Positions 37,328 to 37,521 of a DNA stretch of 64,000 bases are shown here, piece by piece. Every line of letters begins with the position of its first letter. Within the stretch, counting starts at the first letter, position 1. The translations under genes were made by a program, and so were the position numbers. Under the pieces are notes generated by a model. The model did not search any database. It was not told where the DNA came from and worked only from the letters and a program-made list of their open reading frames with translations. This DNA comes from Acutalibacteraceae bacterium. Lineage in GTDB: Bacteria > Bacillota > Clostridia > Oscillospirales > Acutalibacteraceae. The stretch lies in contig JAZSPI010000092.1 in assembly GCA_045537395.1 (NCBI GenBank), positions 7,169-71,168 on the forward strand, written 5' to 3'.

Positions 37328-37521
37328 TTAACACTAAACATTCAACCCGTTGTAAAAGTCGGACGTTTCGACTGATTACAACGGGTTTGTTATAATTAAT
37401 TGTATGGTGCGGCAACTTTTGTCGAACTGAACTTTTTGAGACTTTATATTGTTAAACAATAAGGTGTCGGGCAATCGCCGTGGAGACGATTGCCCTGTGC
37501 CTTTTGGTTTAATAAAAAAAG
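37289..37521 (+). repeat. dispersed repeat copy B (overlaps the last ~13 codons of the nrdG-like gene)
   Basis: It has the same order of modules as copy A. Hairpin 1 is AACCCGTTGTAA...TTACAACGGGTT. Hairpin 2 (37452-37512) has three G-T pairs and three mismatches. Confidence 0.75.

Follow-up and report, generated by a model that had tools for sequence, protein, structure and literature searches.

The 64-kb window analyzed here (the whole 64,000-nt stretch of contig JAZSPI010000092.1) is chromosomal DNA of an uncultured, gut-type bacterium of the class Clostridia, Oscillospirales-like, whose NrdG is 85-89% identical to proteins of metagenome-assembled genomes (MAGs) labelled Clostridia or Ruminococcaceae. 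An earlier note on this DNA reported three copies of a long intergenic hairpin, here called hp2 (copies A, B, and C), and took the wobble pairs of one copy as a hint of function as plus-strand RNA. We find that hp2 is a real family, and that it is best read as something other than a new structured RNA. The three copies span 13.6 kb and lie ~16-30 kb from dnaA. The origin region holds gyrA, gyrB, recF, dnaN, and dnaA (minus strand), at 2682-12691, and yidC and jag are found at 22.7-24.7 kb. The GC skew changes sign at ~11-12 kb and oriC was placed near 12-13 kb (origin interval ~12.7-12.9 kb); beyond this placement the skew is too noisy to tie the hp2 copies to replication direction.

Shared structure of the three hairpins

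To the left of copy A are QueH, an 87-aa gene, FeoB, and FeoA, all on the minus strand. Copies A and B are separated by an aldo-keto reductase / Fe-S gene (hereafter the reductase gene), TM1506, and two Metallophos genes on the minus strand, and by DUF2238, MurE, FemAB, and NrdG on the plus strand. Between B and C lie an nSTAND3-like gene (minus), then GalT and GH2 (plus), and TSCPD (minus) is to the right of C. A Pfam scan of 49 of the larger open reading frames (ORFs) of the window revealed no transposase, integrase, or recombinase, nor any Y1 transposase or REP-associated tyrosine transposase (RAYT, tnpA-REP).

The three hairpins lie where they had been reported, all on the plus strand (Table 1). 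They have in common the core GGCAATCG-N9-CGATTGCC, which occurs exactly three times in the 64 kb even when three mismatches are allowed (0.13 matches are expected by chance, and none of 100 shuffles gave three), as well as the left flank TGTTAAAC and the right flank GGTTTAAT-NN-AAAAAG. Over its ~80 nt, the element reads CTTT..TGTTAAAC - 5' arm - GGCAATCG - 9-nt loop - CGATTGCC - 3' arm - GGTTTAAT..AAAAAG. The arms are 27-31 nt long, terminal inverted repeats are present, and the element is non-coding; the sole ORF across copy A (31 aa, 29110-29205) is broken by a stop codon in B, and coding potential was rejected. The search with a covariance model that the earlier note had proposed was run in the window: a model of the three copies scored them at 84-103 bits and the next match at 18 bits, that is, it found no further copy.

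Copy A has the perfect 26-bp stem described before (TTAAAC...CAATCG), which extends to 31-nt arms that are 97% complementary. Copy B has six non-Watson-Crick positions in its 26-bp stem, three of which are G-T (positions 15-17). In the mid-portion of its 5' arm, copy C has lost 2 nt and carries several mismatches. All three fold with far greater stability than shuffled sequences; the z-scores of the RNA folds are -12.9, -4.8, and -3.1 for A, B, and C, and those of the DNA folds are -11.8, -4.2, and -4.4. The three copies are identical in the tip stem with AGA, at both outer ends, and along much of the 3' arm, whereas they differ in the mid-portion of the 5' arm and in the first six bases of the loop.

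Table 1. Positions of hp2, its homologues, and the associated features. Positions with an L number refer to sequences of related genomes, all others to the window. CM, covariance model.
Feature	Position	Strand	Remarks
hp2 copy A	element 29116..29197, hairpin 29126-29186	+	CTTT to AAAAAG; CM R1 102.2 bits
hp2 copy B	element 37442..37523, hairpin 37452-37512	+	CM R1 102.7 bits
hp2 copy C	element 42645..42724, hairpin 42655-42713	+	CM R1 83.8 bits
A-side repeat unit	28966..29195	+	~230 nt: nrdG 3' pseudo-fragment, hp1, spacer, hp2
B-side repeat unit	37290..37521	+	native nrdG 3' end, hp1, spacer, hp2
Promoter-like site TCGACT-17-TG-n-TATAAT	37368..37396	+	in 3' half of hp1, copy B
Reductase T-type terminator hairpin	29294..29335	-	gene 29353-30450; 98 nt right of hp2-A
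GH2 canonical intrinsic terminator	42577..42616	+	16 pairs, then TTGTTCTGTT; upstream of hp2-C
TSCPD T-type bidirectional terminator hairpin	42731..42771	+	gene 42784-43086 (minus); 17 nt right of hp2-C
hp2 homologue	L168:2341-2423		29.4 bits, E 2.5e-4, model R1
hp2 homologue	L160:2613-2700		20.1 bits, E 0.04, model R1; long hairpin, flanked by the convergent TSCPD and reductase genes
hp2 homologue	L001:3546-3622		26.8 bits, E 0.007, model R2

Strand signals and the duplicated segment

The hint of a plus-strand RNA came from copy B and was not borne out by the other copies. The G-T excess of B is reversed in C, which has one G-T (pairing in plus-strand RNA) and two A-C positions, for which only the minus strand would offer a G-U pair. 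The G-T of C is common to B and is therefore probably ancestral; counted as independent events, there are roughly three plus-favouring against two minus-favouring. The folding energies are inconsistent as well. The minimum free energies (MFE) of the plus and minus strands are -51.3 and -50.6 kcal/mol for A, -29.6 and -27.2 kcal/mol for B, and -22.9 and -25.7 kcal/mol for C, small differences whose sign changes among the copies. A count of compensatory changes among the three sequences, also suggested by the earlier note, gave three pairs in which both partners had changed. As many were obtained in 36 of 500 shuffles, from which the signal is not distinguishable. Rfam 15 has no match in the window at the gathering threshold, and in E-value mode the best matches reach 10-30 bits, where the gathering scores are 45-249.

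Copies A and B are not independent of each other, as both belong to a single ~230-nt segmental duplication. The two repeat units have sharp edges, being 79-89% identical inside, with little variation along their length (79% in the nrdG fragment, 82% in the T-type hairpin hp1, 89% in the spacer, and 85% in hp2) versus ~43% just outside on either side. The first 38 nt of the B unit are the genuine end of nrdG (stop codon at 37325-37327), whose C-terminus ...LRES* matches that of relatives; then follows hp1, a T-type terminator hairpin (37344-37387). The counterpart in the A unit (28966-29003) reads ILSYINLR*S*, interrupted by stops and with no gene upstream, and is followed by hp1 (29020-29063) and the spacer (29064-29115). 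As the A unit carries a dead nrdG 3' end, copy A is a duplicate of the B region. Copy C shares with A and B just the ~80-nt hairpin element.

The promoter-like motif TCGACT-17-TATAAT previously noted upstream of A and B stood for B, where it passes a promoter scan as an extended -10 site ~60 nt upstream of hp2-B. In A, the -35 box reads CCGACT and the scan does not list the site, and at copy C the scan gave no counterpart. Since A and B are one duplicated segment, the presence of the motif in both is a single observation and not two. If this promoter drove an RNA of ~110 nt with the hp2 hairpin as its 3' part, hp2 would be a family of plus-strand small RNA genes, and this would be in line with the weaker, similar site in A, with the three G-T positions of B, and with the spacer being the best-conserved part of the A/B pair. 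Yet the spacer, at 89% identity, does not clearly exceed the dead nrdG fragment and hp1, at 79-82% (48/54 vs 79/98), only the site of B passes the scan, the A-C positions of C pair in the minus strand only, the strand energies disagree, and neither a U-tract of a terminator nor an Rfam match was found. Moreover, the homologues in relatives (see below) come without spacer and promoter. We therefore regard a small RNA family as very improbable, and see here a caution for annotators, in that small RNAs should not be called from the wobble counts of one copy.

Two other promoter-like sites are located near copy A. One, TTGATA-16-TGnTATATT at 29261-29288 on the minus strand (10/12 with an extended -10), lies between the reductase terminator and hp2-A and points to hp2-A and feoA. 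The promoter proper of feoA, TTGACA-17-TGnTATTAT, is at 28905-28933.

Insertions, homologues, and transcriptional setting

The comparison covered ~215 kb of related genomes (designated by L numbers) in the surroundings of nrdG and feoA, and revealed no hp2 at the orthologous junctions. In L001, L162, and L168-L172, the stop codons of nrdG and the nSTAND3 gene overlap by 4 nt (GAAAGCTAAAATATACTG), and the window therefore has an insertion of ~208 nt at B. This insert (~37328-37535) is a composite of hp1, spacer, and hp2, and not hp2 alone. The comparison of the filled with the empty site revealed no clear duplication, and duplications of TTAA or other targets were unconvincing. At the same place, L003 has a different 208-nt repeat (5605-5812), of which a 98.6%-identical copy lies 9 kb away (14928-15135). 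This suggests that the convergent-stop site of nrdG and nSTAND3 is an insertion hotspot, and the independent gain of hairpin-bearing inserts by two lineages at one site of overlapping convergent stops bears on the origin of terminators. Inside the 208-nt repeat of L003 are an inverted repeat and a hairpin resembling a terminator.

The perfect stem of copy A can be polarized, with copy C and the distant homologues of two to three relatives serving as outgroups. Copies B and C share with L160 a T at arm position 10 (a T-T mismatch) and with L168 a G at position 15' of the 3' arm (a T-G wobble). In copy A alone, the 5' arm has changed from AAT to CGA and the 3' arm from G to A, and each change makes a Watson-Crick pair. 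The conversion of an imperfect into a perfect inverted repeat through clustered changes, all in one direction and templated by the other arm, is the mark of quasipalindrome template switching (PMC7202029). Given these clustered pair-making changes relative to B, C, and the outgroups, the perfect stem is derived and best explained at the DNA level. The earlier note had held that perfect palindromes flanked by direct repeats would indicate a selfish DNA element; of these two features, the perfect stem is present in A, where it arose by homogenization of the arms and thus carries the mark of a DNA-level process, and there is no target-site duplication.

Three distant homologues were found in relatives (Table 1), all at gene 3' ends. 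The one in L168 has kept the 3' arm (TTGCCCGATGCTTTTCTGTTAAAATCAAAAAT), has the tip GGGCAACC/GGTTGCCC, and has mostly lost the 5' arm; on the other strand it is a canonical terminator after the 87-aa gene. The one in L160 shares TGTTAAAC, AACAAT.AGG, and ATCGGG/CCCGAT, with a tip that is different but pairs. Model R2 takes in the sequences of A, B, C, L168, and L160, and is an independent test for L001 only, where it found a decayed relative of the L160 hairpin that serves as the terminator of the reductase gene. The tips of the homologues thus differ yet pair (GGGCAACC/GGTTGCCC, GGGTGTCYACC/GGTRGACACCC, and TCACCCACC/GGTGGGTGA). The opposite strand of the L168 and L001 homologues is a stem followed by a T-run, and these two have decayed into canonical terminators. 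In the alignment of five sequences, 11 pairs are changed on both sides, mostly in the tip, and such changes cannot separate selection on an RNA from templating between DNA arms.

Broader searches gave no further member. The exact pattern of core plus GGTTTAA has no match in 185,579 GTDB species genomes, JGI metagenomes, and IMG/VR. The core alone has at least 120 matches in the species genomes, and those listed are all chance palindromes or unrelated terminators, none with the flanks. The pattern of the 3' arm gave 34 matches in metagenomes and viral contigs, none forming the hairpin, and BLAST against plasmids and phages gave no match. A literature search for the core had as its sole palindrome-related match a 77-bp inverted repeat of P. 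gingivalis bound by HU; this repeat is unrelated in sequence, and the 8-mers in common are coincidental.

The copies differ in their transcriptional setting. hp2-B stands 15 nt past the stop codon of the nSTAND3-like gene (minus strand, 37527-38615) and is the sole hairpin after it, with no other hairpin between. hp2-A is insulated from the reductase transcript by the reductase terminator, which has an orthologous T-hairpin at L162:2674-2708. hp2-C has the GH2 terminator on one side and the TSCPD terminator on the other, the latter with orthologues in L002, L161, and L163. Bracketed in this way by other terminators, A and C are not expected to be transcribed from the flanking genes. We considered whether the inverted, 93%-identical T-hairpins beside A and C could be the duplication of an inversion breakpoint, and rejected this because each keeps the gene-relative orientation of its orthologues.

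The position at gene 3' ends of all copies and all homologues would also be expected if hp2 were a functional bidirectional 3'-end hairpin, i.e., an RNA stem-loop under selection for ending or insulating convergent transcription and for shielding upstream mRNAs from 3' exonucleases, with three copies owing to selection for such a module between convergent genes that lack a terminator. The site of B fits well: hp2-B has no competitor behind its gene, the overlapping stops of nrdG and nSTAND3 in relatives have no terminator, and two lineages gained inserts with hairpins there independently. The L168 and L001 homologues are canonical terminators on the gene strand, and in E. coli, repetitive extragenic palindromes (REPs) between convergent genes act as terminators and stabilizers (bioRxiv 10.64898/2026.03.23.713779). 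However, as the earlier note had remarked, no U-tract follows the stem. The tail is TTTAAT, and the sequences behind the stem (TTTAATAA on the plus strand, TTTAACAA on the minus strand) have only TTT on either strand; the terminator scan lists none of the three hairpins. In addition, A and C stand behind canonical terminators on both sides, where little transcription is expected, and A follows a dead gene fragment. Finally, identical tips together with a decayed mid-stem in three copies are not predicted by selection for structure alone. We consider this explanation possible, although unlikely.

A second family of terminator hairpins was seen in the course of this comparison. Its members have an invariant TAAAAG...CTGATA 2x2 internal loop (A.A / A.G) and an outer stem of 7-8 bp that covaries (CCATTG/CAATGG, CCGTTG/CAACGG, CCATCG/CGATGG, CCCACCG/CGGTGGG), followed by a U-tract. 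This GTAAAAG/CTGATAC family is found in the window at 24728-24763(+), 37345-37386(+), 42733-42767(+), and 29298-29333(-), and in relatives at L002:10702-10737, L161:4583-4618, L162:2674-2708(-), and L163:10702-10737, which makes eight instances in 215 kb from five genomes; the genes they follow are jag, nrdG, TSCPD, and the reductase gene. The gene-relative orientation is kept between species and there is no Rfam match. The motif could be a terminator motif bound by a protein.

The gene order around oriC is different in nearly every related genome sampled. The adjacencies at copy A (FeoA/reductase) and copy C (GH2/TSCPD) occur in the window only and in none of these relatives, where TSCPD/reductase (L001, L160), NrdG/nSTAND3 (L001, L003, L162, L168), and GH2/FeoA (L003, L162, L168) are found. 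One inversion of the block from the reductase gene to GH2 would lead from a composite ancestral order to that of the window, with A and C at the new junctions. Homology to L173 and L174 stops at 28961, 5 nt from the left edge of the 230-nt unit of A. Other arrangements include NrdG/TSCPD in L002, L161, and L163, and NrdG/jag in L160. This variety shows that the region near oriC is prone to rearrangement.

Several other features were observed along this region. At 19312-19395, between the convergent 3' ends of a 311-aa and a 173-aa gene and at another synteny breakpoint, lies a GC-rich, perfect four-way junction made of a 12-bp closing stem and three hairpins without linker bases. Its MFE is -64 to -67 kcal/mol (z ~-8), it is not a tRNA, and it belongs to no Rfam family. 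It has a homologue at L160:15101-15180, which keeps the closing stem and hairpin 1 and has hairpins 2 and 3 swapped for other perfect hairpins (compensatory). This junction and the GTAAAAG/CTGATAC terminators may be better leads than hp2. A non-coding module of 1.15-1.2 kb with several GC-rich hairpins (L001:2488-3635, L002:2442-3654, L003:13884-14686) lies beside the 3' end of the reductase gene or FeoB and is partly inverted in L001 relative to L002; it is absent from the window and has no Rfam match at the gathering threshold. The reductase (365 aa, 29353-30450) and TM1506/DUF1893 (160 aa, 30447-30929) are separate overlapping ORFs in the window and in L160, and are fused into a single protein of 523-524 aa in L001, L002, L162, and L163. 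The two Metallophos phosphoesterase genes (30985-31932 and 31944-33068) are tandem paralogues with ~73% DNA identity over 300 + 212 nt; two copies are likewise found in L162, and a single one in most relatives. Lastly, the 311-aa ORF, which has no Pfam domain, contains a 51-nt tandem repeat (18479-18575, 76% identical) encoding a Pro/Thr/Ala-rich stretch.

Origin of hp2 and comparison with known systems

On balance, we favour the reading that hp2 is a lineage-specific, terminator-derived, quasi-palindromic DNA repeat, similar to REPs and to miniature inverted-repeat transposable elements (MITEs), which is propagated and reshaped at the level of DNA, is linked to rearrangements close to oriC, and has at most an accessory role as a 3' hairpin. 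The element would have originated as a 3'-end hairpin and would still behave as one; hp2-B is probably a weak terminator or 3' stabilizer after the nSTAND3-like gene. Its spread may have occurred by duplication at the DNA level and recombination between copies, and not by classic cut-and-paste transposition. For instance, unequal crossing-over at hp2 could have produced the junction of the left flank of B with the right flank of the reductase gene. Complementarity of the arms would be kept, or made, by template switching during hairpin-templated replication (quasipalindrome correction), and the palindromic copies, which offer both direct and inverted homology, would favour inversions of the blocks around them. 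If this is correct, hp2 is routine genome furniture, i.e., another fast-evolving palindromic repeat at gene ends and rearrangement junctions in a poorly studied lineage.

A number of observations weigh against this reading. The conservation within hp2 is far from uniform (post hoc hypergeometric P ~8e-10), which points to a constraint on the sequence itself, for example recognition by a protein or a role as RNA. Neutral decay alone does not explain the pattern, and it is the main observation that the preferred reading leaves partly unexplained, even if another possible source is gene conversion that starts from the perfect blocks. The sample consists of three copies in a 64-kb window. The homology of the L160 hairpin is borderline (E ~0.04), and that of its tip is uncertain. 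Each adjacency of the composite ancestral order is present in at least two relatives, and never do all of them occur in one genome. No direct repeat lies outside CTTT...AAAAAG in A, B, or C; as there is no such target-site duplication, and no transposase, RAYT, or recombinase in the window, the means by which hp2 spread is inferred.

The strict conservation of the tip and of the outer boxes, set against the decay of the mid-stem, would be explained if a dimeric protein bound GGCAATCG-N9-CGATTGCC and the GTTAAAC/GTTTAAT boxes on duplex or cruciform DNA. Such a protein might be a site-specific recombinase or a transposase that inverts or shuffles blocks between the copies, or a chromosome-organizing protein acting close to the origin, and the coincidence of the copies with junctions of rearranged blocks and their clustering 16-30 kb from dnaA/oriC fit these roles. 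CIRCE operators have the layout of an inverted repeat (IR), nine bases, and an inverted repeat (IR-N9-IR), and hp2 resembles them in this respect. However, the scanned ORFs include no recombinase, transposase, or integrase, and the different tips of the relatives leave no binding sequence conserved across species. The rearranged blocks hold housekeeping genes (murE, femAB, nrdG), are fixed between species, and give no evidence of a switch; the outer boxes fall short of the attC consensus (detailed below). A recognition site is therefore improbable in our view. A LacI- or CIRCE-type operator in particular was set aside: the half-sites are LacI-family-like, but are 9 nt apart and at gene 3' ends.

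A more far-reaching proposal is that hp2 and its fast-evolving relatives are a new class of "terminator cassettes", which propagate themselves, insert at abutting convergent stop codons, bring terminators to these sites, and then become recombination sites. The palindromic sites, being direct and inverted repeats at once, would then drive the recurrent inversions of blocks around oriC in this Clostridia lineage, the GGCAATCG-N9-CGATTGCC tip and the GTTAAAC/GTTTAAT ends would be the recognition sites of a species-specific recombinase or transposase, and this enzyme would be encoded elsewhere in the genome. We see this as highly unlikely.

Returning to the preferred reading of a terminator-derived DNA repeat, hp2 can be compared with several known systems. 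REP elements are imperfect palindromes outside genes; they lie at gene 3' ends, in many cases where two genes converge, and can be terminators, mRNA stabilizers, or substrates of rearrangements (PMC3184786, PMC1525189, bioRxiv 10.64898/2026.03.23.713779). Like the REPs and REPINs of Enterobacteria and Pseudomonas, hp2 is an extragenic imperfect palindrome at gene 3' ends, is species-specific, and is absent from the orthologous sites of relatives. Unlike them, it is a single hairpin of 61-82 nt and not a 20-40-nt unit or inverted doublet, its arms are not self-palindromic, and no conserved 5' tetranucleotide of the GTAG type was identified in it. No RAYT lies near it among the window ORFs scanned, three copies are known (all from the 64-kb window), and the host is a Clostridia-class Firmicute.

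Bacterial MITEs may carry terminator or promoter activity and are lineage-restricted. The RUP and BOX elements of Streptococcus pneumoniae and the Correia elements of Neisseria are short, non-coding, hairpin-folding, intergenic, and multi-copy (PMC3184786). The features of hp2 are close to these: it is short and non-coding, has terminal inverted repeats, folds into a long hairpin, and is intergenic, multi-copy, and lineage-restricted. The MITE-like element that the earlier note had offered as an alternative thus comes close to the reading we favour, except that there is no target-site duplication and no parent insertion sequence with matching ends. Besides, copy A spread within a larger segmental duplication. 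What the site of B lacks in the seven relatives with overlapping stops is the whole ~208-nt composite and not hp2 alone, and the adjacencies of A and C exist in none of the relatives.

The attC sites of integrons have the core consensus RYYYAAC ... GTTRRRY (R''/R'). The GTTAAAC and GTTTAAT boxes of hp2 each miss it at one position, these two positions being complementary, copy A is a perfect palindrome without extrahelical bases, and no integrase was found among the ORFs scanned. Furthermore, the intervals of 8.3 and 5.2 kb between the copies hold several housekeeping genes on both strands and not single-gene cassettes. Membership in this class was rejected.

Like Rho-independent terminators, hp2 is a GC-rich stem-loop near stop codons, two of its homologues are canonical stems with a T-run, and the plus-strand MFE of its three copies (see above) are those of a stable stem-loop. 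Unlike them, its stem is unusually long (26-31 bp), on neither strand do the 8 positions directly 3' of it hold at least 5 T, and of the three copies only B comes directly after a gene (the minus-strand nSTAND3-like gene), while A and C are preceded by T-type or canonical terminators. We thus file hp2 as an element that works like a REP, a MITE, an attC site, and an intrinsic terminator, and not as a member of any of these, because the defining tests failed (unit size and RAYT for REPs, target duplication for MITEs, those of attC, and the U-tract for terminators).

The pattern of copy A relative to B, C, and the outgroups is like that of quasipalindrome template-switch mutagenesis (Ripley model), as seen with the quasipalindrome reporters of E. 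coli (PMC7202029). This process accounts for the shape of copy A, and not for the origin or spread of the family. In this respect, hp2 is a clean natural case of the "perfection" of a quasipalindrome by template switching, polarized with outgroups.

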